From positions 2,368,001 through 2,432,000 of the forward strand of contig OZ219926.1 of assembly GCA_964291405.2 (NCBI GenBank): a DNA stretch of 64,000 bases, in the 5' to 3' direction. The stretch is from Thermodesulfobacteriota bacterium (lineage in GTDB: Bacteria > Desulfobacterota > Binatia > Bin18). Under the pieces are notes generated by a model. The model was not told the DNA's origin. It saw only the letters and a program-made list of their open reading frames with translations, and ran no database searches. Below, one piece after another: positions 2,845 to 22,701 of the stretch (the first letter of the stretch is position 1; every line of letters begins with the position of its first letter). Position numbers and translations under genes: made by a program.

Positions 2845-4436
2845 GAAGCCTGAGCAGTGTGCTCCGATGGAGGGAGTGTCAACGGCAGGACGACCCGGAC
2901 TGTGGTTCCGTGATTGACCTTGCTCTCGATCCGGAGTGCGCCGTTATGGGCCATGACAATATGTTTGACAATGGCCAGCCCCAAACCTGTTCCCCCCAAC
3001 TCGCGAGAACGGGCTTTATCCACCCGATAAAAACGCTGGGTCAGACGCGGAATATTGGCTTCCGGGATACCACAGCCAGTATCGGCTATGGCAATCTCCA
3101 GCCAGCCCTGTGCGCCGTTGCCTATGACATCAAGGGCGCTAACATCATGTGCCTCACGAGCGTGCTCCGCGGAGGCGGAATGTCCCCACCATGCCGGTGG
3201 CTCTCCTGCGTCGTCACGCGCAGGGTGCAGTGCCGCGGTGACCGTGACCTGACCCTGAGCTGGTGTATATTTGACCGCGTTGTCGATCAGGTTGATCAGG
3301 ACTTGGTGCAGGCGATCCCGATCTCCTCTCACGGTTGGGAGGGCGGGCGGGATATGCTGAGAGAGGGTGACCCTCCCTCGCTGGGCTTTCTCCTGTAGTA
3401 CATCAAACACTTCCTGGACGAGTTCAGGAATATGGAGTTCCTTCCGATGGAGCTCGGTCTGCCCCAATTCCAGGTTGGATAAAGTCAGGAGGTCGTCTAT
3501 GAGGCGGCTGAGACGCTCCGAGTGCCGGTCAATAATCGTGAGGAAGCGGGTCGCGTGCTCGGGGTCGTGGAGGGCACCCGTGAGCAGGGTTTCCGCATAG
3601 CCTTTGATCGCGGTGAGCGGGGTCCGGAGTTCGTGCGACACGTTGGCCACAAAGTCGGCCCGGATGGATTCGAGCTGTTTGATCGGGGTCAGATCGTGAC
3701 AGCTTAACACATGCCCGCTGGTCGTTGGCTGGCTTTCCCGAGGCGCCCCATATCCCCCGCTCTGGGGCAGGCGCAAGACGCTCACGGCGAGCTGTCGCGG
3801 CTCCTGACCCTCAACTTCGATTTCCTGGGTAACGCCCTCCGCCGATTCTGCGGACAAAAGCTGGTGTAGAACGGGATGGCGGGAAAATTCCTGAAAGGGT
3901 CGGCCCTGCCAGTCTTCCGTTGGGTCCAAACCAAACAAGTGCAGAGCGGCCGGGTTACAGCGCACGATGTTGCCATGCGGATCAATCACAACAAGGCCTT
4001 CAGCCATGCTGTGGAGCAGGGCTTCGAGTTCTTTCTTCTCGTTTTGAAGCTGCTGAAGGTGTTGGCTTTGCGTGGTGAAGAGTCGGGAGAGCTGGTACTC
4101 GATGGTGCCCAACAGGTCGTTTTTTCGGACAGGGAGGGTGGGTGGCGGGACGCGGTTCGGGACAAAAGAGTAATCGTGTCCAGCATCTGTAGGTCTGTTG
4201 GAGGACACGGTTACTCTTTCCGCCAGAAAGGCACTGAGCGCGCTCAAACGCTGCCGGAACTGTGCCCGCTGACGCAGCGCAGTACCTAGGGCGCCAAGAC
4301 CACAGGCAAGGGCTCCATACCAGACCCACTGCGGCCGGGCGTCCGCAGGAAAGAGTAAAAGGAGATGGAGCAGGAGTAGGGCCAGCAAAGCGAGACCGAC
4401 CGGAAACAGAACGGCAAAGGTAATATTGTCTCTCAC
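2841..4436 (-). CDS. phoR: Phosphate regulon sensor histidine kinase
   Basis: Two TM helices, PAS domain, DFVANVSHELRTPLT H-box, NLIDNAVKYT, RFYRVDKARSRELGGTGLGL; directly downstream of phoB. Confidence 0.93.
   Translation of the reverse strand: MRDNITFAVLFPVGLALLALLLLHLLLLFPADARPQWVWYGALACGLGALGTALRQRAQFRQRLSALSAFLAERVTVSSNRPTDAGHDYSFVPNRVPPPTLPVRKNDLLGTIEYQLSRLFTTQSQHLQQLQNEKKELEALLHSMAEGLVVIDPHGNIVRCNPAALHLFGLDPTEDWQGRPFQEFSRHPVLHQLLSAESAEGVTQEIEVEGQEPRQLAVSVLRLPQSGGYGAPRESQPTTSGHVLSCHDLTPIKQLESIRADFVANVSHELRTPLTAIKGYAETLLTGALHDPEHATRFLTIIDRHSERLSRLIDDLLTLSNLELGQTELHRKELHIPELVQEVFDVLQEKAQRGRVTLSQHIPPALPTVRGDRDRLHQVLINLIDNAVKYTPAQGQVTVTAALHPARDDAGEPPAWWGHSASAEHAREAHDVSALDVIGNGAQGWLEIAIADTGCGIPEANIPRLTQRFYRVDKARSRELGGTGLGLAIVKHIVMAHNGALRIESKVNHGTTVRVVLPLTLPPSEHTAQAS
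4165..4219. repeat. ~55-bp palindromic element family A, copy 1 (in frame inside phoR)
   Basis: AAAGAGTAATCGTGTCC...GGACACGGTTACTCTTT inverted arms. Confidence 0.85.
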
Positions 4437-4471
4437 ACGAACGGGCTGTGTTGCATCCGGTAGCCACGCGA

Positions 4472-5272
4472 TTAGGGCTCGAGCGCCTCCGGATTAAATT
4501 TATACCCAACCCCCCGCACGGTCAGGAGCAGACTGGGGTTGGCGTCATCTTGCTCAATACGCTTCCGCAGGCGGCGGATATGGACATCGACCGTGCGGGG
4601 CTCAATATAGACGTTATGCCCCCACACCAGATCAAGGATTTGGGTCCGGCTGAAAACGCGGTTGGGGGACTGGACGAAAAATTTAAGCAGTTCAAACTCG
4701 CGCAGACCCAGTTCCAGCGGATTGCCATCGAGCTTCACTTCGTAGGTATCGTAATCGATCTGCAGGCGACCACGGACATACATCTGATGCGGCTGGTCCG
4801 TCGGCGGCCCATAGGTCCGTCGCAAGACCGCCTTGACCCGAGCGACGAGTTCGCGCGGACTGAAGGGCTTGGTCATATAGTCGTCCGCCCCCATTTCGAG
4901 GCCCAGGACTTTATCGACCTCGGAGGCGCGCGCCGTCAGCATCAAAATCGGGACGGTGGCCATCTTGTCCTGTGCGCGCAACGTTCGACACACCTCAAGG
5001 CCGGACAGGCCGGGCAGCATGAGGTCGAGAATAATAAGCGCCGGACGTTCAACCATGGCAAGATGCAGACTCACTTCGCCGTCACTCGCTTCGAGAACGG
5101 TAAAACCTTCGGTTTCCAGATGATATCGAACCAGGTCACGGATATCTTTTTCATCTTCAATGATCAGCACTTTCCGCTTGGGCAAAGAGGAAACATCCCC
5201 AGCATCTGCGTGTCTATTGGAGGACACGTTTCCTCTTCCCGCCGCCTCCGCTGTCTGCTGTTGTCCCGCCAT
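4472..5272 (-). CDS. phoB: Phosphate regulon response regulator (OmpR family)
   Basis: Receiver (IIEDE, ILDLMLP, KPF) plus winged helix (RTVDVHIRRLR, TVRGVGY); GGAGG SD before ATG 5272; lies in the pst-phoU operon. Confidence 0.93.
   Translation of the reverse strand: MAGQQQTAEAAGRGNVSSNRHADAGDVSSLPKRKVLIIEDEKDIRDLVRYHLETEGFTVLEASDGEVSLHLAMVERPALIILDLMLPGLSGLEVCRTLRAQDKMATVPILMLTARASEVDKVLGLEMGADDYMTKPFSPRELVARVKAVLRRTYGPPTDQPHQMYVRGRLQIDYDTYEVKLDGNPLELGLREFELLKFFVQSPNRVFSRTQILDLVWGHNVYIEPRTVDVHIRRLRKRIEQDDANPSLLLTVRGVGYKFNPEALEP
5185..5237. repeat. Palindromic element family A, copy 2 (in frame in phoB N-terminus)
   Basis: AAGAGGAAACATCCCC...GGACACGTTTCCTCTT. Confidence 0.85.
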
Positions 5273-5285
5273 AACCTCCTCTGTT

Positions 5286-6041
5286 TTAGACTGACTCGGG
5301 TAAGGGCGAGATATGGCGTATGCTCTTGCCCTTTGCCAGATAGATCACCATCTCGGCGATATTGGTGGCGTGGTCCGCAACCCGCTCAAGGTATTTGGCG
5401 ATAAACAATATCCGCATGGCGCGGCTGGCGTATTCGGGTTCCCGCCGCATCTGAGACAGCATAGTGTTGAAAATCTGAGCGGTGAGATCATCAATCCGGT
5501 CATCGCGCTGGCATACACTCAGGGCGAGGTCGGGCGCCTCGGCCACAAAATCGCTGAGTTTGTCTCCGAGGGAGACGCGCGTATCGGGGGCAGCAGTGAC
5601 ATCAGAAGAGGACTGCAAAAACGCGTCGAGGCTGTCGCGCAGCATAGCCCGGGCGCCCTCGGCCATTTCGGGTAATTCCGGCCGCGGGGCGAGGGGCGCT
5701 TCCTTATTGAGCTCGATCGCCCGCTCACAGATATTCTCAGCAATATCGCCGATACGCTCAAGATCGGTGGAAATCCGCAGACTGGTGGTAATAAAGCGTA
5801 AATCCCGAGCGGCCGGTTGATGCAGGGCGAGCAGGCGGATACAGGCTTCATCAATGGCGACATCAAGATAGTTGACCATATGGTCACGCTCTATGACCTC
5901 GTGGGCGGTCTGCGAGTCGCGCTCGACGAACGAGGTGAAGGCATCCCCAATCTGCTTTTCAACCAACCCGCCCATTTCCAACACCTTGGCCCGAAGCTGC
6001 TGAAGTTCTTCTTCGTACTGGCTATCCGTATGAAGTGGCAT
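5286..6041 (-). CDS. phoU: Phosphate signalling complex protein PhoU
   Basis: QPAARDLR, DLERIGD and LERVADHATNIAE motifs. Confidence 0.95.
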   Translation of the reverse strand: MPLHTDSQYEEELQQLRAKVLEMGGLVEKQIGDAFTSFVERDSQTAHEVIERDHMVNYLDVAIDEACIRLLALHQPAARDLRFITTSLRISTDLERIGDIAENICERAIELNKEAPLAPRPELPEMAEGARAMLRDSLDAFLQSSSDVTAAPDTRVSLGDKLSDFVAEAPDLALSVCQRDDRIDDLTAQIFNTMLSQMRREPEYASRAMRILFIAKYLERVADHATNIAEMVIYLAKGKSIRHISPLPESV

Positions 6042-6054
6042 AAGGCCTCCGCTT

Positions 6055-6912
6055 CTAGCCGAATCGGCCGGTAATATAGTCTTCAGTTGCCTGTTTTTCC
6101 GGGGTAGTGAATAATTTTTCGGTCTTTCCGAACTCTATCAATTCACCCAAATACATAAAAGCGGTGAAATCCGAGACTCGTGCGGCCTGCTGCATATTGT
6201 GGGTGACGATGACAATCGTATACTGCTTTTTCAGCTCATGGATAAGTTCTTCAATTTTTGTCGTGGCAATCGGATCCAGGGCGGAGCAGGGTTCATCCAT
6301 CAGAACGACTTCGGGCTCAACCGCAATGGTCCGGGCGATGCACAGGCGTTGGTGCTGCCCACCGGATAAACCCAGCGCATTGTCGTGCAGCCGATCCTTG
6401 GCTTCTTCCCAGAGGGCGGCGGCGCGCAGACTCTTCTCAACGATATCATCCAACTGCGCCTTGTTGTGGATACCGAGCACCCGTGGCCCGTAGGCAACGT
6501 TTTCATAGATGGTCTTGGGAAAGGGGTTCGGCTTTTGGAATACCATGCCGACCCGTTTGCGCAGCTCGGTGACGTCAAGCGTTTGATCGAGAATTTGGAT
6601 GCCGCCCACGATAATACTGCCGCTGGTCGTACAGCCGTCGATCAGGTCGTTCAAGCGGTTTAGGCAGCGCAGCAGGGTGGACTTGCCGCAGCCCGACGGG
6701 CCGATGAAGGCCGTTACCTGGCCTCTGGCGATATCCATATCGATATGCTTGAGGGTCTGGGTCCTGCCGTCGTAGCTGAGACACACGTCCCGAATTTCAA
6801 CTTCGATATTGTCCCGCGTGCCGAGAGCGGTGGGGTCATGGCCGTTGCCCGAATCCGGTCGCGGCGGCAGGGTTACGGCGTGCCCGACTGGAGATTTTTC
6901 CTGGCTTTCCAT
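6055..6912 (-). CDS. pstB: Phosphate ABC transporter ATPase
   Basis: [49 protein letters not shown]. Start taken at MESQEK. Confidence 0.95.
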
Positions 6913-6925
6913 ACTCACTCTCCCT

Positions 6926-8554
6926 TTAGAAGGCGCCAAAGCGTAAGCGGCTACGTAAGCGGTTCCGAATCGCAATCGCAGCCAGGTTCAAGGCAATGAC
7001 AATCACAATCAGCAGCAGGGTCGTCATAAAGACCATGGGCTTGGCCGCCTCGACATTCGGCGACTGGAAGCCGACATCGTAAATATGAAACCCCAGATGC
7101 ATAAATTTTCGTTCCAGATGAAAGAACGGCCAATGGCCGTCAACGGGCAGGGTTGGGGCCAGTTTGACCACGCCGGTGATCATCAGCGGAGCGACTTCCC
7201 CGGCGCCACGGGCCATAGCCAGAATCGTCCCGGTCAGGATGCCCGGCAAAGCGCCGGGAATCACAATTTTTCGGAGGGTCTCCCACTTGGTCGCGCCCAG
7301 CGCCAACGAGCCCTCCCGCCACTCTGTTGGGATGGCGGACAAGGATTCTTCGGTGGCGACAATCACCACCGGGACGGTCAGCAAGGCCAAGGTCAACGAA
7401 GCCCACAGAATCCCGCCGGTGCCATAGGTCGGGGTGGGCAGGGAATCCTGGTAGAAGAGCTGGTCCAGCGACCCGCCGATCATATACACAAAAAACCCGA
7501 GGCCAAAGACGCCAAACACAATCGAGGGCACGCCGGCGAGGTTGTTGACCGCAATCCGGACGGCGCGGACCAGCGGACCTTGCTTGGCATATTCGCGTAG
7601 ATACAGGGCGGCGACCACGCCAAAAGGAACCACCACAATGCTCATGATGATGACCATCATGACCGTCCCGAAAATAGCGGGGAACACGCCGCCCTCGGTG
7701 TTGGCCTCGCGCGGGTCTTCCCAAAAGAATTCCCAGAAGCGCGTCACGTACAGGCCGAGGCGTTCAAACCAGTTCATATCGTTGGGCAGAAAACCACGCA
7801 CCACACCGGCGATAGCCAGCTCTTTTTCTTTGCCGTTAATGTCCTGCACAGTCATGTGATAGCGCGAGTTTTCTTGGTATAACGCGGCGAGTTCCTGGGC
7901 TTTTTCCTCGTAGGCCAGTTGCAAAGAGGCGATGGCCTCCTCAAGCGCGGCAATTTTTTCGGCGGCCCTGGTGGGGTCGGCCTCGCTGCGCTGGGTGCGT
8001 TTGACCTCGATGCGCAGTTGTTCGAGCTCGTAGTTAATATCCCCAATATCTTTCTTTTCGATGGCGTGGATATCGTCCAGCGTGTCTTGGGTCCGGGCGT
8101 GGAGTTCCAGGAATTTTGGCCAGGCCTGGTCAAAACCCTCGGCGACGATTTCTCCGTCCTGTCGCACCGTGGTGAGAAAGCCAAAAAACGGGCCCCATTC
8201 ATACCGTTCCAAATATATCGCCTGCTCCGGAAACGCATGCCCGGTCATCAGGCTGTCATCCACCCAGCGAAAATCGGAGCCGTACAGGTCACGGTTGGCG
8301 ACCTGGAATTGCGTCCGGTAGTATTCCCGGACGGCTCCGGTCTGTTGCGGAATAGCCTCCTGGGCACGGACCGACCCCAGGAGCTTTTGTCCGTTCTGAA
8401 GGTCAACGGCCCTGAGTTGGTCGGGCCAGAAGAACCCGAGCGCATTGGCCCCAACGATCCAAATGAGGGCAGCGATCATAAGCAGACTGAAGACCAGAGT
8501 GCCCCCCGTCATCCAGATGAACGGGTCGCCGCTGCGTAGAAAGCCTTTGAACAT
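6926..8554 (-). CDS. pstA: Phosphate ABC transporter permease PstA (large periplasmic-domain type)
   Basis: [42 protein letters not shown]. Start 8554 or 8635. Confidence 0.93.
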
Positions 8555-8621
8555 GCCACCCCCCCTCTTCCCCCCCAAAGGGGGGGATGGGTATTGATGC
8601 GGCACCACGGACGCCGAAGAA

Positions 8622-10964
8622 TTAGATACGGCCATAACGATCTCGTAAGCGCTGGCGGACAACTTCCGCCGCGGTATTGACCAAAAACGTTAAAATAAAG
8701 AGGAGCAGGGCGGCCAGGAAGAGGACGCGGTAGAGCGTCCCGCCGTGAGGCGCTTCCGGGATTTCCACCGCGATATTCGCCGATAAGGCACGGAAGCCGG
8801 TAAAGGGATCAAAGTCCATGACGGGCGTATTACCGGTGGCCATCAGGACAATCATGGTTTCCCCGACTGCTCGTCCGAAGCCGATCATGATGGCCGAGAA
8901 CACACCGGGGCTGGCCGTTGGCAGCACGACCCGCAGGGCCGTTTGCCAGCGCGTCGCCCCCAGCGCTAACGAGCCGGAAATCAGATGCTGGGGAACGTTG
9001 GAAAAGGCGTCCTCACAGATAGTGTAGATAATCGGGATGACGGCAAAACCCATGGCAAAACCCACAATCAGGGAGTTGCGGGGGTCGTACCGCACCCCGG
9101 TGGTGTCGTACAGCCATTGGGGGAAATCACCGGCGAAAAAGGCGGCCTCAAGCGGAGTGTTGAGCACGACACAGATGTAGATGGAGAGCATGAGCAGCGG
9201 GGCCAGGAACAGGAGTTCAGCACCCGGTTTCAGGCTGCTGCGAAAGCCGAGGGGCAGCAGCCGCCAGGCAAATGACGCACCCAGGGTCACCAAGGGCATC
9301 ACGATAAACATCAGCAGCATGGCCGGCACCATATCGGCCACCAGGGGCGCCAGCCACAGACCGGCAAAAAAGCCGAGCACGACGCTGGGCAGGGCGGCCA
9401 TCACCTCGACCGAGGGCTTGACTATATTGCGCAGCCGCGGATGCATGAACTGTGAGGTATACATCGCGCCGCACAGACTGAGGGGAATGGCTAACAGCAG
9501 GGCGTAAAATGTTCCTTTCAAGGTCCCGTAGGCCAGTGGGGAAAGGCTGAATTTCGGCTCAAAATCGTCCGTTCCACTGCTGGACTGCCAGGTATAGTCT
9601 GGGGCGTCATAGCCCTCGTACCATATCTTTCCGAACAGAGAGGAAAAGGTGATCTCCGGATGGGGATTATCAACCGTCCAGTTGTACAACTGGCCTTCTT
9701 GATTGAGAGCGATGATACCATTTGTCCGTGGGGCATAGGCGAGCTGGGTAATCGGGCTGCTGGCTGTGTCGCGGCTCAAAATGGTGGTTTCGGTGGTTGA
9801 ATACTGGATGCGGACCGTGCCGCTGGTATCGCCGGTCACAAAGCCTTTATTCCGTGGAGAGGGAGAGATGGTCGTAATAGGTGCGTCGTGGGACTGCATC
9901 ACATGAATTTCACGGAAGGGAAGTTCGGCCGGATTGTCCTGATCGCGCACCTGGAACCAGACACTCACCCCCCCGGCGTCATCTCCCATAACGAGAGAGC
10001 GGTCGCCAATCAACCAGGCCATTGCCCGGACGGGAGCCCGCCCTTGACCTCGTAAGCGCGGCTTGACCTGGGGCGCAGCGGCGTCGCGAATATCCCAATG
10101 GATCACCTCACCGGTTTCTAGTGCGGCAAACAGGTTTCGCTGTTCTGCATCTAACGTCAACGCCGTCGCGTTCGCATCCAGCGCCGCTGAGAGCTCTGCG
10201 CGGTGTTCCGATACCTGCGTCTCGCCCAAGAATGATTCTTCGACTGTTCGAGACAGGAAGAGGAGGGTGCGTGGGCCGAGCAGGGCGGCCAGTGTCATCT
10301 TCTCCTCGTCTTCGCTGGTACTCTGGTAGGTCAGAGCCTGAATAGCGCGGCCTTGTGGGTCGAGGACAATCGCCTCATCTTCCATAACCTGAGGCGTGCT
10401 GATGCGGGTCTTGCCCTCGAACGAGACCGGGAAGGAAATCGTCAGGGGAACAGCGATACCGTCCGCGGTTCCGAGCACGGCGGTGTGCGTCAGGTTACGA
10501 TAGTGCACCGCGGTGATCCGCCGCCCCTGCAGGGCTTGGATTTCATACCGTTGGAGGAGTTGGTTGTCCGCGAGGGACAGAAAATCAACCGTTCCCGCCT
10601 GGGTAATAGTGTAGGCGATTTCTCGATACTCATCGATGCCCAGCGCGAGGACATTCGTATGGGGCCCACTGCCAACCAGGTCGGTCAGCGGAATTGGCGG
10701 GGTCTCAAGCTCCGCAGTAGGTACCTTCCAGAGGGGTAAGGTTTCGGCCACGATCACAAAAAGAATCGCGGCGATGCTCAGAATCACGGCAAAGCCACCA
10801 CCGGTGATCAGAATAGTCGCAGCCTTATCAACCAGCTTTTTCCGCTGGAGTCGGCTTTTATCCTCGGTCGCCGAGAGACGGACACCGACCGGCTGCGCTC
10901 CGTTTGCGGCCGGTAGCGATGACGGTTGGGAGGGACGTTCCTGCGTCTCCGGCATGATAGACAT
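8622..10964 (-). CDS. pstC: Phosphate ABC transporter permease PstC with beta-propeller periplasmic domain
   Basis: GKIWYEGY, WQSSSGTDDFEPKFSL, LPSVVLG, GRAVGETMIVLMATGN. Confidence 0.93.
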   Translation of the reverse strand: MSIMPETQERPSQPSSLPAANGAQPVGVRLSATEDKSRLQRKKLVDKAATILITGGGFAVILSIAAILFVIVAETLPLWKVPTAELETPPIPLTDLVGSGPHTNVLALGIDEYREIAYTITQAGTVDFLSLADNQLLQRYEIQALQGRRITAVHYRNLTHTAVLGTADGIAVPLTISFPVSFEGKTRISTPQVMEDEAIVLDPQGRAIQALTYQSTSEDEEKMTLAALLGPRTLLFLSRTVEESFLGETQVSEHRAELSAALDANATALTLDAEQRNLFAALETGEVIHWDIRDAAAPQVKPRLRGQGRAPVRAMAWLIGDRSLVMGDDAGGVSVWFQVRDQDNPAELPFREIHVMQSHDAPITTISPSPRNKGFVTGDTSGTVRIQYSTTETTILSRDTASSPITQLAYAPRTNGIIALNQEGQLYNWTVDNPHPEITFSSLFGKIWYEGYDAPDYTWQSSSGTDDFEPKFSLSPLAYGTLKGTFYALLLAIPLSLCGAMYTSQFMHPRLRNIVKPSVEVMAALPSVVLGFFAGLWLAPLVADMVPAMLLMFIVMPLVTLGASFAWRLLPLGFRSSLKPGAELLFLAPLLMLSIYICVVLNTPLEAAFFAGDFPQWLYDTTGVRYDPRNSLIVGFAMGFAVIPIIYTICEDAFSNVPQHLISGSLALGATRWQTALRVVLPTASPGVFSAIMIGFGRAVGETMIVLMATGNTPVMDFDPFTGFRALSANIAVEIPEAPHGGTLYRVLFLAALLLFILTFLVNTAAEVVRQRLRDRYGRI

Positions 10965-11002
10965 ACCTTATGCTATTCTGCGAACAGGGCAAGCGGTGAA
11001 CA

Positions 11003-11032
11003 CAGACGGGCGGGAGGGCCTCCGCCCGTCTG
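11003..11032. terminator. GC-rich hairpin between pstS and pstC (mRNA stabiliser or attenuator)
   Basis: CAGACGGGCGG...CCGCCCGTCTG 11-bp stem. Confidence 0.5.
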
Positions 11033-11050
11033 CTATTTCATCCTGGTACA

Positions 11051-11104
11051 AAAAGGAAACGTGTCCGGCATCATACATGCTATTGGAGGACACATTTCCT
11101 TTTT
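11051..11104. repeat. Palindromic element family A, copy 3
   Basis: AAAAGGAAACGTGTCC...GGACACATTTCCTTTT. Confidence 0.85.
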
Positions 11105-11128
11105 CGAAGGTACGCGTGAGAAGAGCGC

Positions 11129-12097
11129 TTATTCCAAGGCCGCTCGATCTTCATTCACCAGCTTGGCAGACATTGGATAGTAGCCGTCCTTGACCACGAT
11201 CTCTTGTCCTTCCTTGCTCAGGACAAACTTGAGAAATTCCTTAGTCAGGGGGTCGAGCGCCTTGTTCGGTTCCTTGTTCACATAGACAAACAGGAAGCGG
11301 GATAAGGGATACTGACCGCTGGCCACATTCTCGTACGTGGGCTCGACATAATCACTGCCTTCTTTGACTAGCGGGATGGCACGTACGCCAGAGGTCGTGT
11401 AGCCAATACCGCTGTAGCCGGCCCCTTTTCTGTCCTCACTCACGCCTTGGACTACAGAGGCCGAGCCCGGCTGCTCTTTCACCGTATCCTTGTAGTCGCC
11501 CTTGCACAGCGCGACCTTCTTGAAGAAGCCGTAGGTGCCCGAGGCGGAATTACGACCGTACAGGCTGATCGGCGCTGAGGCCCAGTTACCGCTCAGGCCC
11601 AGGTCGCCCCAGGTGGCGGTATCCAGAGTCGCGCCGCATTTGCGGTTTTTCGAGAACAGGGCATCGACCTGCTGAATGTTGAGCCCCTGGATCGGATTAT
11701 CCTTATTGACAAAGACGGCCAGTGAGTCGAGCGAGGTCCGAACCGGAGTCGGTTTGTAGCCGAACTTCTTCTCAAACTCGTCCGTCTCTTTGCTCTTCAT
11801 GGCACGGGACATGGGACCGAGTTGGGCCGTGGCTTCAATCAACGCCGGCGGGGCGGTGCTTGAGCCTTTGCCTTCGATCTGGACGTTCACGTTGGGATAG
11901 ACTTTTTTAAACCCTTCGGCCCACAGGGTCATCAGGTTGTTGAGCGTATCTGAACCGATGCTGTTCAGGTTGCCCGAGATGCCGCTGACCTTTTCATAAC
12001 TGGGCAGGTCGGCGTCGACCTGAATCGTCTGGGCGCTTGCCACCGAGGCGCTCAGCGCCAGGGCTCCACACAGGGCCAGTAGTTTTCGCATTTTCAT
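11129..12097 (-). CDS. pstS: Phosphate ABC transporter substrate-binding protein
   Basis: Signal peptide, [31 protein letters not shown]. Confidence 0.95.
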
Positions 12098-12121
12098 ACT
12101 CTCTCCTCCATAGGGATTACT

Positions 12122-13537
12122 TTAGAAATCGACCATGAAGCGCGCCTGGACGATATCGGCATCGCCGCAGTGGTCACCCATGTCGCCTTTGTAATAACAG
12201 TCATCTTCATCCAACATCGCGCGCACATAGTTGAGCATAAAGCGCATGTTAGGGTTGAGATACCAGTTGACGCCAAAGGTGAAGTTGCTCAGCTCGCCGC
12301 CGTTCATGTCTTCGTCGTTCAGGTCTAGCATGGAGTAGCGGGCCGCGAGTTCCAACGCCCCGTAGCCGCCCTTCCAGTCGAAATTGTTCTTGGGCTTGAC
12401 CCGGTCGAACGCTCCATTCGAGGTCTTGTAGGCCCGATGCTCTCCGGTCAGGAAGAAACTGCCGAAGACGTAAAACCCGTCATAGTGGATGTCGTCTCCC
12501 GAGGGTCGGTCAACCAAGGCGCTCATCCACTCGAACTGCACCGAGGCCGGGCCGTATACCAGCGCCACTTCGGGGTTGAAGTAGTCCACGTCCTCGATGT
12601 GAAACTTCGGGGTTTCTACGAACCGGGGGCCGAGATGCGCTTCGGGCCGTTGACGCCACCGAATCCTGTTGCCCTTGTCGTGGAACGCGTGCCGGTATGA
12701 CAGTCCGAGGTGGAGGAGCTGTCGGCCCTTTTCCTGATACCAGGGCAGGGTCGTAAACCGGGTCGTGGCATTGTAGACCCCGCTGTTGCCGAAGGTCGTG
12801 CTGGTGTCGGCCGGATTGCCTTCCCGGAAAAAACCGAACGCCGCGGTAGCGCGCTTATCCAGAAAGGCCCGGTTCAAGCGCACACCGAGGTTACGACCGC
12901 TGGAGAATACATTGGGCAGCGAGCGCTCCATAAAGGTAAGGTATTTACTGCTATTCAGTTCTTCGAGCGAGAACGGCTCCTTGAAATGGCCGACCGTGAA
13001 GTTCCCGGCCATCGGGACTTTCTTGATCTGGATATAGGCATCTTTGAACGGGTCGGAGCTGGCAAAGTCGTACTGAAATTTGTACTTGATGTTGCCGTAG
13101 ACGCTGCCTTCCATGAAGAAGCGTGCCCGCCGGAACTCCGTGCCATCGCCGATTCGGCCAAACTGTCGCCGAATCTTCTTGTCCGTGCTGTAGACGGCCC
13201 AGTCGTTCTGGATTCGACCGCCGACCTTCAGCTTGAATTTGCCGTCGGCCGAGTCGAGCCGCAGCCCGCTCTTCCAGTAGGCGGCCAGAAAATTCTTCTT
13301 GCCGACGTTTTTCTCTAAGCCTTCGACCTTTTGAGTCAGGTCCGAGGCGGCCGCAACCTTCTCATCCTCGGCTTGGGCCTTAATCATCAGATCGCGGTAC
13401 TGCTCCTCGCTGATCTGCCCATTGGCTTTCAGAATATCCAGGATTTCTGCGGCCACATTCTTGGCCTGGGCTGGTCGTGCCAGCAGCAGCCCGGCCGCAA
13501 CAAGGCCGACGCAGAACGCTAATCCCAATCGTCTCAT
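12122..13537 (-). CDS. Phosphate-selective porin, OprO/OprP family
   Basis: EFRRAR, GHFKEPFSLEELNSSKYLTFMERS, GVNWYLNPN, C-terminal Phe; first gene of the pst operon. Confidence 0.9.
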   Translation of the reverse strand: MRRLGLAFCVGLVAAGLLLARPAQAKNVAAEILDILKANGQISEEQYRDLMIKAQAEDEKVAAASDLTQKVEGLEKNVGKKNFLAAYWKSGLRLDSADGKFKLKVGGRIQNDWAVYSTDKKIRRQFGRIGDGTEFRRARFFMEGSVYGNIKYKFQYDFASSDPFKDAYIQIKKVPMAGNFTVGHFKEPFSLEELNSSKYLTFMERSLPNVFSSGRNLGVRLNRAFLDKRATAAFGFFREGNPADTSTTFGNSGVYNATTRFTTLPWYQEKGRQLLHLGLSYRHAFHDKGNRIRWRQRPEAHLGPRFVETPKFHIEDVDYFNPEVALVYGPASVQFEWMSALVDRPSGDDIHYDGFYVFGSFFLTGEHRAYKTSNGAFDRVKPKNNFDWKGGYGALELAARYSMLDLNDEDMNGGELSNFTFGVNWYLNPNMRFMLNYVRAMLDEDDCYYKGDMGDHCGDADIVQARFMVDF

Positions 13538-13662
13538 ATGGTATGTCTCCTCCTCCAGTGTTGAATTCCTGCTCTGACGTTTCTCCAGTACCTCGGTTGA
13601 CGCATGACTTCTTCTATACCATTTCCGCAGATCACCCCCTCTCGTGCGGGCCAGAGATGAGC

Positions 13663-13716
13663 AGGGTAGGTTCGGGCTGTTACAAGAAAGTGACAGGGCC
13701 GTTATGAATGTGTGAA
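13663..13716 (-). promoter_or_regulatory. Pho-box promoter of the oprP-pst-pho operon
   Basis: Four half-sites at 11-bp period (TTCACA, ATAACG, GTCACT, GTAACA), then -10 TACCCT. Confidence 0.8.
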
Positions 13717-13896
13717 AATCCAGGTCGGGTACGTATCGACGAGGCTAGAGCAAAATTCACATTAGTGTAGCGTCCACCGGCCTCCGCGCGTTGCCCGATA
13801 AGTCGGGGGCGCCCTGCGCACCGGGGCAAGGTGGTGCATGGGATGCACCCGACGGAACTCTGGAGAGCACCTCGCTACACCACGGAGGAAACTGCT

Positions 13897-14310
13897 CTAG
13901 CCGATTGCCTGACAGCCTGCGGGTATTGGCTTGTTCAAAGCGAGGGAGAGCTGGTGGTGGACAAGCCGACAGAGTTCGGAAATGGAAAATGGCTTGCCTA
14001 AACAGTAGTGTACGCCGCTGTGTTGCAGTTCTTTTTGCTGCCGCTGAGAAGCAAGGGCGCTCACCACGATAATCGGCACCTGACGGACGCGCGCATCCGA
14101 ATGCCGGCGGATATATTCGAGGACCTGCCAGCCGCTTTTCAGCGGCAGCAGGAGGTCTAAGGTCACCAGGTCGGGCCCAAAGGATTCAACCCGTGCGCAG
14201 GCCTGCTCTCCATCTTCGGCGATTTCGACGCAGGAGCCCGCTTGCTCGAGATTATAGGCGATCAGGTGAGCGATACTGGGCTCATCCTCCACGACCAGAA
14301 CTTTTTTCAA
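13897..14310 (-). CDS. Single-domain response regulator (receiver)
   Basis: VVEDE, DLVTLDLLLP, VVSA, KPF; no output domain. Confidence 0.85.
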   Translation of the reverse strand: MKKVLVVEDEPSIAHLIAYNLEQAGSCVEIAEDGEQACARVESFGPDLVTLDLLLPLKSGWQVLEYIRRHSDARVRQVPIIVVSALASQRQQKELQHSGVHYCLGKPFSISELCRLVHHQLSLALNKPIPAGCQAIG

Positions 14311-14397: not shown

Positions 14398-15657
14398 TCA
14401 ATGCGACTGCGCGGTGGTTTGTCTTTCCTGGGGTGATACTCCCTGAGCGGATTGGAGGGTAGAAGCGGGGGCGGTCGAAGCAAACCATCCCTCGGTGCGC
14501 TGGCAGAAGCGCACCAGCAGCAGCATTACCGGGACCTCGATGAGCACGCCCACAACGGTCGCCAGGGCGGCTCCGGATGACAGCCCAAACAGCATGGTTG
14601 CCGTGGCAATGGCTACCTCGAAATGGTTGGAGGCACCAATGAGCGCAGTTGGGGCCGCATTCTGGTACGACAGTCTGAGGACTCTGGCCAGCCCGTAGGC
14701 CAGGGCGAACACCAGGACGGTTTGAATGAAGAGAGGAATCGCAATCCAGACAATCATCAGCGGATTGGACAGAATCATTTCGCCTTTGAGGGAGAACAGC
14801 AGGACCAGGGTGATGAGCAGGGCGCTAATAGTGACCGGCGTGAGAAAGTGGAGAAACCGCTCGCGGAACCATTGCTCACCTTTGGTCCGCATAATCCACT
14901 GACGAGAGCAATAGCCCGCCACCAGCGGCAGGGCGACATACACGCCAATGGACAGCAGCAGGGCTTGCCAGGGGACGGGCAGACGGCCGATTCCGAGCAA
15001 CACATCGCCCAGCACGCCGTACAGGACAAGCATGGTCAGAGAGTTCAGCGCGACCATGACCAGCGTCAGACCGTCATTCCCCTTGGCCAGATAGCCCCAA
15101 ACCAGGACCATGGCCGTACAAGGCGCGATGCCGAGCAGGATACAGCCGGCCAGATAGCTGCGCCACAGCGGCACCTCCAACATCTTGACGCCGTCTATCA
15201 ACACGACGGTTCCAGAGCCGTAGAGCGAGCCGACCGGCAGATTGAGACCGAACGGCATCTTGACGTGGTCAACGGCATCCGGGCCGATCACATCGAGAAA
15301 GAAGGTCCCGAGAAAAAGCACGGCAATTGCATACATGGTGAAGGGCTTGATGGCCCAATTGACAAACAGGGTGAGTCCGACCGGACGGACGCTCTTCCCC
15401 GCTCGAATGACCTCGGCAAAGTCGATTTTGACCATGATCGGGTACATCATGAAGAACAGACAGATCGCGATCGGAATCGAGACCACCGGCGCATCGCCGA
15501 CATACAGGGAGAGCCCGTCGAGAAAGGTCGCCATACCTGGTGCGACACTCCCCAGGCCGATGCCTGCGGCAATGCACAACAGGACCCAGACGGTCAGGTA
15601 GCGCTCAAAGACACTCAGCCCCTGCGACGGCTTGAACGGAGATGGTTTGGTGGCCAT
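14398..15657 (-). CDS. acr3: Arsenite efflux transporter Acr3
   Basis: [58 protein letters not shown]. Confidence 0.93.
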
Positions 15658-15812
15658 GGGTATCCTCTCTCCTAAAAGAAGACAGAGTTCGCGGGAAGAA
15701 TTCGGACCATGTGACCTAAGCCAAAGAATATGACACTGACATTACAGAGCAAAGACATCTGCATGAACTGTGCATATTCTCAGTATTGAGAGTATGCGCG
15801 GACCACAGGTGG

Positions 15813-16816: not shown

Positions 16817-18214
16817 TCAGACAAATTGTAAAAACAGGGTTAAAATACCCAAAAAGGACAAAAAGCCAAAAATATCCGTGCACGCGGTGACAAACACGTT
16901 TGAGGCCACCGCCGGATCAACACCCAGGCGACGGAGGGTCAGGGGGACCATACTCCCGACAGACGCCGCAATGATTAGGTTGGCCAGCAGCGCCAGCGCC
17001 AGCACGACGCCCAGGGTGGGATCGCCCTTCCACAGGTAAGCAAGAATGCCGGCCGCGGCACCAAGAGCCAGACCATTGCCCAACGCGATGGTCAGTTCCT
17101 TGACTAACACCCGCTTGGTTTGTGTCAGTGGGACTTCACCCAGAGCAATACCCCGAACGATGACGGTAAGTGTTTGTACGCCGGCATTTCCACCCTGGGC
17201 CGCGACAATAGTCATAAAGGCCGCCGCAATGGCAATTTGCTGAATCGTTCCTTCAAAAAAGGCAATGACAAGAGCACTCAGCGTTGTGGTCACTAAATTG
17301 AGCGCCAGCCAGGGCAAACGAAGGCGGATAGACAGCCAGGGCGAGTCCAGCACTTCTTCCTCTTCATCGAGGCCGGCAAGCTTATAAATGTCTTCCGTCG
17401 CCTCCTCCTCCATGACATCAACCACGTCATCAACCGTAATACGCCCGAGTAAACATCCTTCGCTATCGACTACGGGCAGGGAAATCAGGTCATATTTTTT
17501 AAACATCTGGGCGACCTGTTCCTGATCCAGGTCCGCCCGAACCGAAATGACCTGCCGGTCCATGACGGTTTCGACGAGATCAGTCGGGCGGGCGAGAATA
17601 AACTTCCGGAGGGGGAGGACGCCGACGAGGCGATTGGTGTTACTCACGATAAAGACACTGTGGATATCCGGGATCTCATTGCTCTGACTGCGAATCATCT
17701 CAGTGGCTTGGTCGATACGCGTGCCTTGGGACACGGCCATATACTCGACCTGCATGATACCGCCGGCGGTATCCTCGGGATAACGTAAGAGTTGGGTGAC
17801 TTCGTCGGACACGTCCTGCGGCACTTCGTCGAGAACCGCTTTGGCGCGCCGCGCCGAGAGGGAGGCCAGCAAGTCCGTGGCGTCATCAGAGTCAAGATAT
17901 TCGACCAAGTCTCCTAGCCCGTCATCCGATAGGCGCTCAACGAGATCGTCTTTGGTGTGGGCGGAAACGAGACTTAAGACCTCGGCTGCCTGTGGGGCGG
18001 CCAGAAAGCCAAACACCTTGTGCTTCACCTCAGGCTCTTCCAGCACATTCAACAACTCTGCGGTGTCCGCTGGGTGCAGGGCGGCAACCCCCGTCCGCAC
18101 AATCTCGTCCTGACCCAACTCGGCCTGAATGACGAGATGTTCGAGGGAAGGCGGTTGCGGGGAGCCCTGAGGTGAGGCCGCTGCAACCGGCGGATATGTC
18201 GTCTGCGCTTCCAT
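16817..18214 (-). CDS. mgtE: Magnesium transporter MgtE
   Basis: HPADTAE, YPEDTAGGIM, CBS pair, GRITVDDVVD, RLPWL, GGNAGVQT, GVDPAVAS. Confidence 0.95.
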   Translation of the reverse strand: MEAQTTYPPVAAASPQGSPQPPSLEHLVIQAELGQDEIVRTGVAALHPADTAELLNVLEEPEVKHKVFGFLAAPQAAEVLSLVSAHTKDDLVERLSDDGLGDLVEYLDSDDATDLLASLSARRAKAVLDEVPQDVSDEVTQLLRYPEDTAGGIMQVEYMAVSQGTRIDQATEMIRSQSNEIPDIHSVFIVSNTNRLVGVLPLRKFILARPTDLVETVMDRQVISVRADLDQEQVAQMFKKYDLISLPVVDSEGCLLGRITVDDVVDVMEEEATEDIYKLAGLDEEEEVLDSPWLSIRLRLPWLALNLVTTTLSALVIAFFEGTIQQIAIAAAFMTIVAAQGGNAGVQTLTVIVRGIALGEVPLTQTKRVLVKELTIALGNGLALGAAAGILAYLWKGDPTLGVVLALALLANLIIAASVGSMVPLTLRRLGVDPAVASNVFVTACTDIFGFLSFLGILTLFLQFV

Positions 18215-18229
18215 GCGTCGTCTCGCTTC

Positions 18230-18283
18230 AAAGAGGAAACGTGTCCAGCATCTCTCTATCATTGGAGAGCACGTTTCCTCTTT
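18230..18283. repeat. Palindromic element family A, copy 4
   Basis: AAAGAGGAAACGTGTCC...GAGCACGTTTCCTCTTT. Confidence 0.85.
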
Positions 18284-18368
18284 TCGTCCGAACTGTAGCT
18301 GCCAAATCACAAAAGATGAATGGCCTCGCCTACAGTGGGAGTGACCTGAGCAGATGCGGCCCGACGGC

Positions 18369-18421
18369 GTCACACATTTTTCACCGGAGCGTCACAATGT
18401 TGTCATACAACGAGGAAACAT
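18369..18421 (+). promoter_or_regulatory. Pho-box promoter 1 in the mgtE-ppk1 interval
   Basis: Half-sites GTCACA (18369), TTCACC (18380), GTCACA (18391), GTCATA (18402); -10 candidate AAACAT. Confidence 0.75.
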
Positions 18422-18429
18422 AGGGGGAA

Positions 18430-18511
18430 GAAACGCTATCCCTACCCCCCGCGCTGCCAGGGCATGTTGATCCTCCTCCCTAGGGTCGCCCGCCCCTGGC
18501 AGCGCCCCCCT
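18430..18511 (+). ncRNA. Putative PhoB-dependent hairpin RNA, tandem copy 1
   Basis: 5' AACGCUAUCCCUACCCCCC, stem GCGCUGCCAGGG/CCCUGGCAGCGC, apical loop CCUCCCU. Confidence 0.65.
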
Positions 18512-18539
18512 TAGTGTCTTGAACTCTTATGCTGCACGA

Positions 18540-18593
18540 ATAACCGGACTGTCATTGAGCTGTCACTCAGGTGTAAAATCTCCCCGATAAGAT
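18540..18593 (+). promoter_or_regulatory. Pho-box promoter 2 in the mgtE-ppk1 interval
   Basis: Half-sites ATAACC (18540), GTCATT (18551), GTCACT (18562), GTAAAA (18573); -10 TAAGAT at 18588. Confidence 0.78.
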
Positions 18594-18596
18594 AGA

Positions 18597-18682
18597 GAAC
18601 GCTATCCCTACCCCCCGGCGCTGCTAGGTGCCGTGTCGATCTCCCTCCCTAGGATCACACGCCCTGGCAGCGCCCCCTCCTC
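18597..18682 (+). ncRNA. Putative PhoB-dependent hairpin RNA, tandem copy 2
   Basis: Same 5' tail, stem GGCGCUGCUAGG/CCUGGCAGCGCC, loop CCCUCCCUA. Confidence 0.65.
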
Positions 18683-18845
18683 TCGCTACTGTGGGTTCAT
18701 AACCTGATGCTATCCTGGTCGATAGAAACAGTAGCGTCCTGGTGTGGGCTGGTCGGGTAGCGCAGATCGCTCTACGGGGTTGCTATTCAGCGTGCTGAGC
18801 TTATATCTATCGTTGTCGGAGCGTACACCAGATGTCTGATAGAAG

Positions 18846-18895
18846 GAGGAAACGTGTTCTCCAATGGTAGAGAGATGCTGAACACGTTTCCTCTT
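18846..18895. repeat. Palindromic element family A, copy 5
   Basis: GAGGAAACGTGTTC...GAACACGTTTCCTCTT; near-identical inverted copy of copy 4. Confidence 0.85.
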
Positions 18896-18910
18896 GACGG
18901 CGGTATCTGC

Positions 18911-21025
18911 ATGGAAGACAAGCCTTTTATTAACCGTGAATTGTCCTGGCTCGAATTCAACCGACGCGTGCTTGAAGAGGCCTTCGACGAAAGCGTCCCC
19001 TTGCTCGAACGCGTCAAGTTCATGGCCATATTCAGCGCCAATATGGACGAATTTTTTATGGTCCGTGTGGCGCGACTCAAGCGGCGTATTGCGCAGGGCG
19101 ACCTGGAGGCCGGTCCGGATGGCATGACACCGGCCCAAACGCTGACCGCTATCTCAAAACGAGTCCATGAGCTTGCCGAGGAACAACACCGGGGTTTTCT
19201 GGAGACCATTCAGCCGCAACTGGAGGCCGAGGGGATTCATATTACCCGCCCGGAAGAGTTGAACACCGAGCAGAGTCATTTTCTTGAAGACTTCTTTCGG
19301 CGGACCCTGCTGCCAGTTGTCACGCCGCTGGCGATCGATCCCGGCCATCCCTTTCCCCACCTCGGTAATCGCTCCCTGTGTCTGGTCGCAGCCCTGCGCT
19401 CGGCCGGAACCTCGCGTCTGCCCCAGACCAAACTGGCCGTTGTTCATATTCCCAGCCAAGTCGTCCAGCGTTTTATTGCGCTACCGGCTCCAGCTGGCAA
19501 GCATATCTTTATCCTGCTCGAAGATGTGGTGCGGCTGTACCTGCCCCGCCCGTATCACGGCTATGAGATCCTGTCGTGTCACGCCGTCCGGGTGACGCGG
19601 GACGCGGACTCGGCCCTGGCACTCGGCCGAACCGAAGATCTCCTCACGAGTATCGAAGAGAGCGTGCGCGACCGGCGCATGGGGACCGCGGTGCGGCTGC
19701 AATACGACTCCGACCTGCCGCAGGGCGTTCTCAATATGTTTATTGATGAACTCGACCTGCGCCCCGAAGATCTGTACGGCGGTGAGGGTTTCACCGCTTT
19801 TACCGACCTGTTTCAGCTCTATGGAGCCGTGGACCTGCCGCAGCATAAAGACCAGCCGTGGACGCCCCTGCCGGTCCCGGCCTGTGAGCAAAAGCCGGAT
19901 ATGTGGAGTGCAATTCGGGAGGGCGACATCCTGGTGCACCATCCCTACCAATCTTTCGATGTGGTGATGCGCTTTGTGGAAGAGGCCGCGACCGACCCGA
20001 ATGTCCTGGCCATTAAAATGACCCTCTACCGGGTCAGCCCGACCTCGCCTATTGCCCAGGCGCTCACGCGGGCCGCAGAAGCGGGTAAGGAAGTAGCCGT
20101 CCTGGTCGAACTCCGCGCCCGTTTTGATGAGGAAGCCAATATTACCTGGGCGCGCGCGCTCGAAGAGGTCGGCGCCCATGTGGTGTATGGCCTGGTCGGC
20201 TATAAGACCCACTGCAAGGCCTGCCTGGTGGTACGGCGTGAGAATGGTGGCATCCGTCGCTACTGCCATCTCGCAACCGGCAACTACAACGTGAATACGA
20301 GCGGCATCTACGGCGACTTCGGTCTCTTTACCTGCCGCGAGTCCTTTGGCGACGATCTCACCGACCTGTTTAACCTGTTAACCGGCTATACCCGCCCCCA
20401 GGCGTTTCACCATCTCCTGGTCGCTCCCACGAGTATGCGGGAGGGCATGATTGAGCGGATTCGGCGCGAAGCGGAACACGCCCTGGAGGGTAAGCCGGCC
20501 AGGATCATTGCCAAGATCAACAGTCTGGTTGACGCAGCCATGATTGAGGAGCTGTATACTGCCAGCCAGGCGGGGGTGGAGATTGATCTCATCATCCGTG
20601 GCATCTGCTGCCTGCGGCCCGGACTGCCAGGCATATCCGAACGGATTCGGGTAATTTCGATTATCGATCGCTACCTCGAACACGCCCGCATCTTTTATTT
20701 TCATAATGATGGCGAGGCCGAGTATTTCCTCTCCTCGGCCGACTGGATGCCGCGCAATCTGGACCGCCGCGTCGAGGTCGCCTTTCCCATCCTTGATCCC
20801 CATATCCAGGCCCAGCTTTTTGAAATACTCAGCATTCAACTGGCCGACACGGTCAAGGCCCGCACGATCCTCCCCGATGGACGCTCCAAGCGGGTAGAGC
20901 CCGACCCGCTCGCCCCTGTCCGTTCTCAACAACGCCTGTACGAATTTACCAAGACCCAGTCCGACGCTCAGATGCCCGTTGAGGGAGAGCCCGACCTAGA
21001 CGGTTTGCAGCCGTTTGAAGGGTAG
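18911..21025 (+). CDS. ppk1: Polyphosphate kinase 1
   Basis: NRELSWLEFNRRVL, DEFFMVRVA, HPFP, HHPYQSF, IKMTLYR, ELRARFDEEANI, KTHCK, TGNYN, SADWMPRNLDRRVE. Alternative GTG start at 18854. Confidence 0.97.
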   Translation: MEDKPFINRELSWLEFNRRVLEEAFDESVPLLERVKFMAIFSANMDEFFMVRVARLKRRIAQGDLEAGPDGMTPAQTLTAISKRVHELAEEQHRGFLETIQPQLEAEGIHITRPEELNTEQSHFLEDFFRRTLLPVVTPLAIDPGHPFPHLGNRSLCLVAALRSAGTSRLPQTKLAVVHIPSQVVQRFIALPAPAGKHIFILLEDVVRLYLPRPYHGYEILSCHAVRVTRDADSALALGRTEDLLTSIEESVRDRRMGTAVRLQYDSDLPQGVLNMFIDELDLRPEDLYGGEGFTAFTDLFQLYGAVDLPQHKDQPWTPLPVPACEQKPDMWSAIREGDILVHHPYQSFDVVMRFVEEAATDPNVLAIKMTLYRVSPTSPIAQALTRAAEAGKEVAVLVELRARFDEEANITWARALEEVGAHVVYGLVGYKTHCKACLVVRRENGGIRRYCHLATGNYNVNTSGIYGDFGLFTCRESFGDDLTDLFNLLTGYTRPQAFHHLLVAPTSMREGMIERIRREAEHALEGKPARIIAKINSLVDAAMIEELYTASQAGVEIDLIIRGICCLRPGLPGISERIRVISIIDRYLEHARIFYFHNDGEAEYFLSSADWMPRNLDRRVEVAFPILDPHIQAQLFEILSIQLADTVKARTILPDGRSKRVEPDPLAPVRSQQRLYEFTKTQSDAQMPVEGEPDLDGLQPFEG

Positions 21026-22637: not shown

Positions 22638-22671
22638 GACCTGGCGCCTAGGCAGAGAGCGAGCGAAGCCG

Positions 22672-22701
22672 AGCCTCTTTCCTCTTGGGAAGAGGCTTTT
22701 T
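22672..22701 (+). terminator. Rho-independent terminator after bamD
   Basis: AGCCTCTT...AAGAGGCT followed by a T run. Confidence 0.7.

Follow-up and report, generated by a model that had tools for sequence, protein, structure and literature searches.

Two Pho-box and hairpin units between mgtE and ppk1

The window analysed here is a 64,000-nucleotide stretch of DNA from an uncultured Binatia bacterium, whose genome is 4.9 Mb and 97.5% complete. In this window, the divergent genes mgtE (-) and ppk1 (+) are separated by a 696-bp gap, which is occupied by two units of ~167 bp (18369-18682). Each unit has an array of Pho-box-like half-sites, a C-rich 5' tail and a long GC hairpin (Table 1). We describe these units here and consider whether they may be small RNA genes, parts of the ppk1 leader, or both.

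The starts of the two units are 166 nt apart. They open with the same 20-nt C-rich sequence (AACGCTATCCCTACCCCCCG, from 18432 and from 18598), a 16-nt piece of the stem and 3' side (CCCTGGCAGCGCCCCC) is identical at 18494 and 18662, and the loop regions share 81% identity over 31 nt. A first-pass annotation made from the letters alone had described a unit present twice with an identical 5' tail, a GC stem and a CCUCC-type loop, and all of these elements were confirmed. The four Pho half-sites and the -10 that it assigned to each unit were also found, with an exact 11-bp period in both arrays and weak -10-like hexamers. The position of the promoter 1 hexamer is kept across species (CATAGG/TATAAA/TAGAAA/CATACT), and the GATAAG hexamer of promoter 2 likewise lies 7 nt before the conserved start. 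These -10 assignments and the RNA start sites of both promoters are predictions from sequence. The unit 2 hairpin was the best match of the covariance model R1 (105 bits). The folds of the opposite strand were far less exceptional than those listed in Table 1 (z -1.85 for unit 1 and -2.78 for unit 2).

Three other readings of this region were rejected. When both units were folded as one RNA, long-range pairing appeared between the 5' arm of unit 1 and the 3' arm of unit 2, which we take to be a by-product of their likeness. A leader fold paired the tail in cis with 18746-18765; this segment is absent from many relatives and therefore cannot account for the conservation of the tail. Neither the ppk1 proximal box nor the block upstream of mgtE could be read as a sigma-54 promoter, since the -24/-12 spacing, judged by eye, is unsuitable.

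Table 1. Features of the unit locus and of the neighbouring Pho island, in window positions
Feature	Coordinates	Strand	Details
Promoter 1 Pho-box array: TCAC 18370, TCAC 18381, TCAC 18392, TCAT 18403	18369..18407	+	Exact 11-bp period
Promoter 1 -10-like hexamer CATAGG	18419..18424	+	11 nt past last half-site, 7 nt before conserved putative RNA start
Unit 1 C-rich single-stranded 5' tail AACGCUAUCCCUACCCCCC, 19 nt	18432..18450	+	Unpaired in folds; identical in unit 2
Unit 1 hairpin, loop CCUCCUCCC (18472-18480)	18451..18505	+	-34.9 kcal/mol, z -5.45, 0/200 shuffles as good
Unit 1 pyrimidine-rich 3' flank without U-tract	18506..18527	+	Sequence
Promoter 2 Pho-box array: TAAC 18541, TCAT 18552, TCAC 18563, TAAA 18574	18541..18577	+	Exact 11-bp period
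Promoter 2 -10-like hexamer GATAAG	18586..18591	+	CCGATA.gA conserved in type-2 promoters; putative
Unit 2 C-rich 5' tail	18598..18616	+	Identical to unit 1 tail; unpaired in folds
Unit 2 hairpin, loop CUCCCUCCC (18641-18649)	18617..18674	+	-37.8 kcal/mol, z -7.91, 0/200 shuffles as good
Unit 2 CU-rich 3' flank CCCCUCCUCUCGCUAC	18675..18690	+	Conserved among species (alignment)
ppk1 proximal promoter-like box TTGCTA-N16-TATATC	18774..18814	+	Conserved in all close ppk1 loci; putative function
ppk1, polyphosphate kinase 1	18911..21025	+	Pfam PP_kinase N, middle, C1, C2; NCBIfam TIGR03705 872 bits
mgtE magnesium transporter, divergent neighbour	16817..18214	-	Pfam MgtE, MgtE_N, CBS; TIGR00400 313 bits
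Reference Pho boxes, porin-pstSCAB-phoU-phoB-phoR promoter: TCAC, TAAC, TCAC, TAAC	13679..13716	-	11-bp period; sequence and scan
Phosphate-selective porin (porin O/P)	12122-13537	-	
pstS	11129-12097	-	
pstC	8622-10964	-	
pstA	6926-8662	-	
pstB	6055-6975	-	
phoU	5286-6041	-	
phoB response regulator, presumed activator	4472..5272	-	Response_reg + Trans_reg_C; between phoU and phoR
phoR	2841-4436	-	

The arrays resemble Pho boxes. The 11-bp period and the CTGTCAT-type consensus are those of the E. coli Pho box. In the 4.9-Mb genome, the only match to TGTCAY-N5-TGTCAY is at unit 2, and unit 1 is the single place with four TCAY at 11-bp spacing. To scan the chromosome contig C3 (nearly the whole genome) for three 11-bp-spaced half-sites, we derived a crude weight table from the half-sites of the unit promoters. 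The unit promoters took ranks 1, 2, 5 and 11 (promoter 2 holding ranks 5 and 11), which is circular because the table was built from them. The ranks of the porin-pst promoter (TTCAC-N6-ATAAC-N6-GTCAC-N6-GTAAC), ~17 and ~29 of ~9.8 million positions, are not circular. Promoter 2 and the pst promoter also have the layout ATAACS-N4-TGTCAY-N5-TGTMAC in common, and in promoter 1, promoter 2 and the pst promoter the last half-site ends ~8-11 nt before the putative -10 hexamer. PhoB is described as binding direct repeats, with activation demanding strict spacing to the core promoter (PMC10294691).

The pattern of conservation was similar in the two kinds of promoter. The half-sites and the TAYCYT -10 of the porin-pst promoter are at least 90% conserved in 19 genomes, and its spacers vary. 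The unit promoters have an equal footprint in the 19 type-1 rows, with half-sites at least 90% conserved and spacers variable, and the half-sites are conserved in the 8 type-2 rows as well; the type-1 block had contained 20 rows, one of which was a misfiled type-2. This agrees with the first-pass view that the spacers had diverged and the half-site period was kept. These results suggest that the unit boxes are credible PhoB sites, to which PhoB would bind.

The porin-pst promoter belongs to a complete Pho island at 2841-13716 (-), which lies 5 kb from the units and contains porin O/P, pstS, pstC, pstA, pstB, phoU, phoB and phoR. The pstC-like permease has 780 aa and gives weak WD40/beta-propeller-like matches at residues 250-450, before BPD_transp_1; pstA is likewise long (578 aa). 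A separate repeat of ~36 nt stands upstream of the pst promoter (13744-13780) and recurs, nearly unchanged, more than 20 times in the genome and its congeners. Beyond the Pho island comes an SBF-family transporter gene (14398-15657, -). The space between them contains, at 13897-14310 (-), the gene for a 137-aa orphan protein with a receiver domain, which NCBIfam matches best to the receiver half of PhoB. A Pho-box-like array at 15715-15756 (-), ~60-100 nt upstream of the SBF gene, had scan rank ~21, and judging from this array the SBF gene may be another member of the Pho regulon. On the other side of the gap, a block just upstream of the mgtE copy of a palindromic repeat (18283-18326, TTCGTCCGAACTGTAGCTGCCAAATCACAAAAGATGAATGGCC) is strongly conserved among congeners. 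It may serve mgtE as a promoter or leader, and Rfam matched neither an M-box nor any other family in it.

Conservation, strand and setting of the units

An alignment and a covariance model were made from 27 distinct units. The consensus hairpin has 19 pairs, and 95.9% of the 513 cells are paired; sliding the partners by 1-3 columns lowers this figure to 33-48%. Double changes that keep the pairing were found at 5 pairs (13 cells). The covariation score and the paired fraction were reached by 0 of 500 shuffles; since related sequences may exceed shuffles in this test, the slide control was given more weight. There are 74 G-U cells on the + strand, which are A-C mismatches on the other strand, and the opposite case accounts for 5 cells (counted from the pair tables). 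These many G-U pairs place the hairpin on the + strand. Conservation is highest in the tail and loop, which are left unpaired and whose columns are invariant or reach at least 90%, as expected of a pairing seed; the stem columns covary. Taken together, the alignment supports a conserved RNA structure on the + strand.

The stems and loops also vary among the 27 units. The exact loop CCUCCUCCC was found in four of them (unit 1 of the window, win_u1, and L012a, L013a and L019), and the commonest loops are CUCCCUCCC and CCGCCUCCC, with variants besides. Six units have a G-G mismatch where the stem variants GCUGCCAGG/CCUGGCAGC and GCUGGUAGG/CCUACCAGC meet, and the two variants seem, from their sequences, to have recombined in these units. 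In one congener (L040, 2245-2391), the hairpin is doubled head to tail with neither a second promoter nor a second tail, and the second copy starts directly after the 3' flank of the first.

The unit is present in 2 copies in its own genome. A covariance-model search of relatives, as the first-pass annotation had proposed, found the unit in 19 of the 27 other genomes of the genus, with 1-2 copies each. Of the 8 congeners without a match, 5 are 65-89% complete and 2 others show deletion remnants (loci L039 and L083). In a second genus, g22, one weak match was obtained in 1 of 2 genomes; divergent homologues occur in both (G058 and G059), and the weak match is a true homologue. The model found nothing in the 25 genomes of genera g18-g21 and g23-g26, nor in 136 genomes sampled from the class beyond this genus.

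With two copies only, the unit is not a high-copy genome-wide repeat unlinked to Pho boxes, which the first-pass annotation had named as an outcome that would count against its proposal. The abundant element of this region is a different 53-nt palindromic hairpin repeat (consensus AAAGAGTAAACGTGTCCTCCAATAGACATGAGATGCTGGACACGTTTACTCTTT), which occurs at 18231-18283 (-) and 18843-18895 (+). This palindrome has 153 loci in the genome and ~100 candidates per congener, with no clear orientation bias to gene starts (107 vs 80 of 153). It looks mobile, like a miniature inverted-repeat transposable element or a repetitive extragenic palindrome (MITE/REP-like), because at the ppk1 site it is present or absent depending on the species. 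The two local copies each stop 16 nt short of a start codon (the ATG of mgtE for one, that of ppk1 for the other), and the ppk1-side copy makes GGAGG-N4-GTG in frame with ppk1. No known RNA family was recognised: with Rfam up to E = 10, the interval 17000-20000 gave only a chance microRNA match, on the 53-nt repeat, and nothing in the whole window reached gathering score.

The surroundings of the unit differ among genomes. In G021, an intact type-1 promoter and unit stand beside mgtE and are followed by a convergent Gp49/HTH gene pair, and ppk1 is 5 kb off, behind a type-2 box remnant without hairpin. G001 has two units 6 kb apart, unit a before a 1681-aa cadherin-like gene and unit b before ppk1. 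In the second genus, the G059 unit has three 11-bp half-sites, the C-rich tail, a CCUGGUAGG/CCUACCAGG stem as in L014 and a UUUCCUCA loop; it adjoins an alkaline phosphatase gene and is upstream of an unrelated 91-aa open reading frame. The G058 unit has four half-sites and the same stem as G059 and is followed by a convergent DUF3047 gene. These contexts support the unit being an autonomous module, independent of one downstream mRNA.

Small RNA genes, ppk1 leader or both

We propose, with about an even chance of being right, that the units are small RNA genes that PhoB activates and whose RNAs work without Hfq, and that PhoB-driven transcription also leaks through their ends into ppk1. The case is built on comparative sequence evidence and one ambiguous RNA contig. 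Phosphorylated PhoB would bind the four 11-bp-spaced half-sites, which would replace the -35 element, and transcription would begin ~7 nt after the weak -10. The product would consist of the 19-nt unpaired C-rich tail, the long GC hairpin with its anti-Shine-Dalgarno-like CCUCC loop, and the pyrimidine-rich 3' flank. No Hfq was detected in the 97.5%-complete genome, and Rho is present. Lacking Hfq, the RNA would act through its exposed C-rich tail and loop, which may pair with G-rich or Shine-Dalgarno (SD)-like sequences by analogy with C-rich-loop small RNAs such as cuckoo and 6C. As the hairpin has no U-tract, the 3' end would probably form inefficiently, with the help of Rho or by processing. 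Transcription of the unit would probably run on into ppk1, which would thereby be controlled by PhoB in addition to its own proximal promoter. The module would thus be an autonomous small RNA gene in two genera of one Binatia family. From the phosphate-induced small RNA pair of the first-pass annotation, this proposal retains the credible boxes, the conserved + strand RNA and the autonomy; no canonical terminator goes with them.

Several results weigh against this proposal. The -10 elements are weak, and a simple scan found no consensus sigma-70 promoter in 18100-19000. In the same interval no hairpin-plus-U terminator was found after either unit, where the flanks are CCCCCCUU and CCCCCUCCUCUC; the first-pass annotation had rightly called the U-tracts weak, and a textbook terminator does occur in the window at 22671-22698, after bamD. 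The best NCBIfam match of the phoB product is PhoB TIGR02154 at 274.7 bits, below the equivalog cut-off of 296.2. Loss of the unit by deletion in several congeners (L039 and L083) indicates that it is dispensable. Target searches in this genome (11-mers and an ungapped pairing scan) gave no phosphate-related match. Outside the locus, the 11-mer complements of the tail and the loops numbered ~22, 20 and 15, which is the chance level under a rough expectation of ~2 per 11-mer. As no target exceeds chance, a function in trans is an inference, and the repressive arm that the first-pass annotation gave to PhoB is not borne out by target prediction.

The individual candidates from these searches were unconvincing. 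The best matches overlapping an SD were dnaN and a DUF1326 gene. The top match of the tail in the ungapped scan had 17 pairs and lay ~115-133 nt upstream of a gene for a small secreted protein without family. The leader of the porin-pst operon contains a G-rich box, ACGAGAGGGGGTGATCTGCGGAAA (13621-13645, -), which is at least 90% conserved across 19 genomes and could pair in part with the C-rich flank and loop of the units; as a target it was rejected, because its score was only in the top 0.02-0.3% of genome positions. An intergenic segment with two CCUCCUCCC motifs (G000:C3:725650-725830) folded no better than its shuffles (z -1.0 to 0). The other strand of this segment carries a 14-nt perfect complement to the unit 1 loop.

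The assembled RNA is also ambiguous. We compared four RNA-library runs as assembled contigs, which cannot show RNA ends or exclude DNA, and contig depths were not used for ranking parts. A 354-nt contig from library X2, of a close relative, corresponds to 18528-18687, 18770-18842 and 18911-18969, and spans the promoter-2 boxes, unit 2, the proximal box and the ppk1 start. Because it takes in both the promoter-2 boxes and ppk1, this contig is better explained by read-through, a leader or contaminating DNA than by a discrete small RNA starting from 18598, and it adds weight to the first-pass caveat that copy 2 could be the ppk1 leader. The contig end at 18528 abuts adapter letters, 16 nt after the C-run of unit 1, and is a weak hint of an RNA end. 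The runs X1, X3 and X6 cover only the ppk1 5' end and the repeat. Unit 1 (18386-18493) is uncovered in all four runs, which is no evidence of silence.

The main rival is a pure cis element, which we think less probable than small RNA genes with leaky ends. The arrays would then be distal PhoB-dependent ppk1 promoters, and the tail, hairpin and flank would form the 5' part of a long ppk1 leader with no function in trans. This part could stabilise the transcript by its stem-loop, or its C-rich RNA could load Rho in the manner of a rut site and, by attenuation, set the PhoB-driven flow into ppk1. The X2 contig, which links unit 2 to the ppk1 coding region, and the missing intrinsic terminator both fit such a leader. 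At every close unit-bearing ppk1 locus except that of G021, a unit is co-oriented with ppk1 and 90-520 nt upstream of it, a position that counts against an independent small RNA and would be expected of a leader too. A remnant of two half-sites directly before the proximal ppk1 promoter, without hairpin, in G013 (L083) points the same way. C-rich, G-poor RNA loads Rho; the units have more C than G (GC skew to -0.36), and the genome has Rho. However, the proximal box of ppk1 is kept also in three close loci without a unit (L039, L043 and L083), which speaks for the autonomy of the unit. Intact units face a convergent downstream gene in G021 and G058 and stand before unrelated genes in G001 (unit a) and G059, which is hard to reconcile with a leader of ppk1. 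Two tandem copies of promoter plus hairpin are unneeded for a gene-specific leader, the letters of the tail and loop are conserved beyond the needs of a stabilising stem, and the interval from unit 2 to ppk1 is poorly conserved and indel-rich.

The remaining explanations are all improbable in our estimate. A duplicated PhoB-binding region serving divergent mgtE and ppk1, or a decaying element, with an incidental or insulating palindrome and no functional RNA, would suit an array between divergent genes, the deletion losses in L039 and L083 and a copy number from 0 to 2. We consider it quite unlikely, because the pairing is strand-specific by the G-U count, the fold z-scores favour the + strand, compensatory changes preserve the stem, conservation starts at the predicted RNA start and includes unpaired segments, and the whole module recurs in a second genus with other surroundings. 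A small peptide started from a GTG or ATG in the 5' arm of the stem is the least probable explanation, and we regard it as very unlikely. In 22 of the 27 distinct units a GTG, ATG or TTG at about nt 21-38 is followed by at least 15 stop-free codons, which qualifies the first-pass statement that no open reading frame is conserved. This start has no SD and is buried in the GC stem, the frame is broken or without a start in 5 of 27 units, and 1-nt loop indels shift it; the stem changes are compensatory at the RNA level and not synonymous, and the C-rich composition is itself poor in stop codons.

A more far-reaching version of the small RNA proposal concerns the ribosome. The 16S ribosomal RNA of this genome ends in the canonical GAUCACCUCCUUUCU (GGAUCACCUCCUUUCU), which makes the CCUCC loops true anti-SD look-alikes. 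The RNA pair could then be a PhoB-induced mimic of the 16S 3' end (loops GAUCCUCCUCCCU and GAUCUCCCUCCCU), which at high abundance would compete for SDs genome-wide, brake initiation and meter ppk1. We hold this version to be unlikely. If it is true, phosphorus-costly ribosome use would be spared in phosphate starvation, the leaky and possibly Rho-dependent end would meter PhoB-driven transcription into ppk1, and one module would couple a global translational brake to polyphosphate synthesis.

More generally, a small RNA driven by Pho boxes would give PhoB a post-transcriptional arm; if the units are only a ppk1 leader, the finding is an ordinary one. The natural variants with 0, 1 or 2 copies, the two promoters and the covarying hairpin provide a compact test case for the question of whether a nutrient-responsive small RNA gene and the leader of its neighbour, ppk1, can be one element.

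Comparison with known systems

A literature search and Rfam gave no account of such an RNA, nor of any RNA regulator described for Binatia. It looks like a new RNA, though of a kind with precedents. The first-pass annotation had likened the loops to those of cuckoo-type small RNAs. According to PMC4615179, cuckoo RNAs, including RSs0680 (CcsR), have 2-4 adjacent hairpins per RNA, each with CCUCCUCCC in its loop; they were found only in Alphaproteobacteria in a screen of 2,680 genomes, and RSs0680a is bound by Hfq. Like them, the present units have anti-SD-like C-rich loops (exactly CCUCCUCCC in unit 1), side-by-side copies, and stems that change compensatorily with the loop kept (PMC4615179). 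Unlike them, each promoter-bearing unit has one hairpin, a second promoter separates the units, the exact loop motif is limited to a few units, and the C-rich 5' tail is conserved. The Binatia lineage, the lack of a detected Hfq, the Pho-box promoter and the absence of an Rfam match also differ. The resemblance is therefore one of loops only, and the units are not cuckoo RNA.

The arrangement recalls tandem small RNA genes in Pseudomonas aeruginosa. There, each prrF copy has its own regulator-controlled promoter, and the PrrF RNAs are Hfq-dependent and have canonical terminators. Like the units, prrF1-prrF2 are two near-identical tandem genes that answer the scarcity of one nutrient, and read-through of the first copy, giving PrrH, is part of their biology, as outlined in PMC2851614 and PMC10597452. 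Unlike the predicted PhoB activation here, prrF is governed by Fur repression and iron, and there is no likeness in sequence or structure.

The 6C small RNA of Actinobacteria has two C-rich loops in one RNA, and we know of no Pho control of it. It is described as reaching several mRNAs through its C-rich loops, with no RNA chaperone involved, in a high-GC organism (PMC6486639), and this is the mechanism proposed here for the units. The 6C RNA, for which Rfam is expected to have a model, comes from a different phylum, and the units have no Rfam match.

The closest regulatory parallel is PhoS of Bacillus. Bacterial phosphate homeostasis is regulated almost wholly by proteins, according to PMC11522486. 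PhoS is described there as a small RNA whose induction under phosphate scarcity goes through the Pho two-component regulator, as we suggest for the units. In contrast to PhoS, which derives from the phoPR 3' untranslated region (PMC11522486), the RNA proposed here would have its own Pho-box promoter upstream of ppk1, and its sequence is unrelated. In conclusion, by analogy, the units would work most like the Hfq-independent C-rich-loop small RNAs, are arranged like prrF, and resemble PhoS in their regulatory logic.

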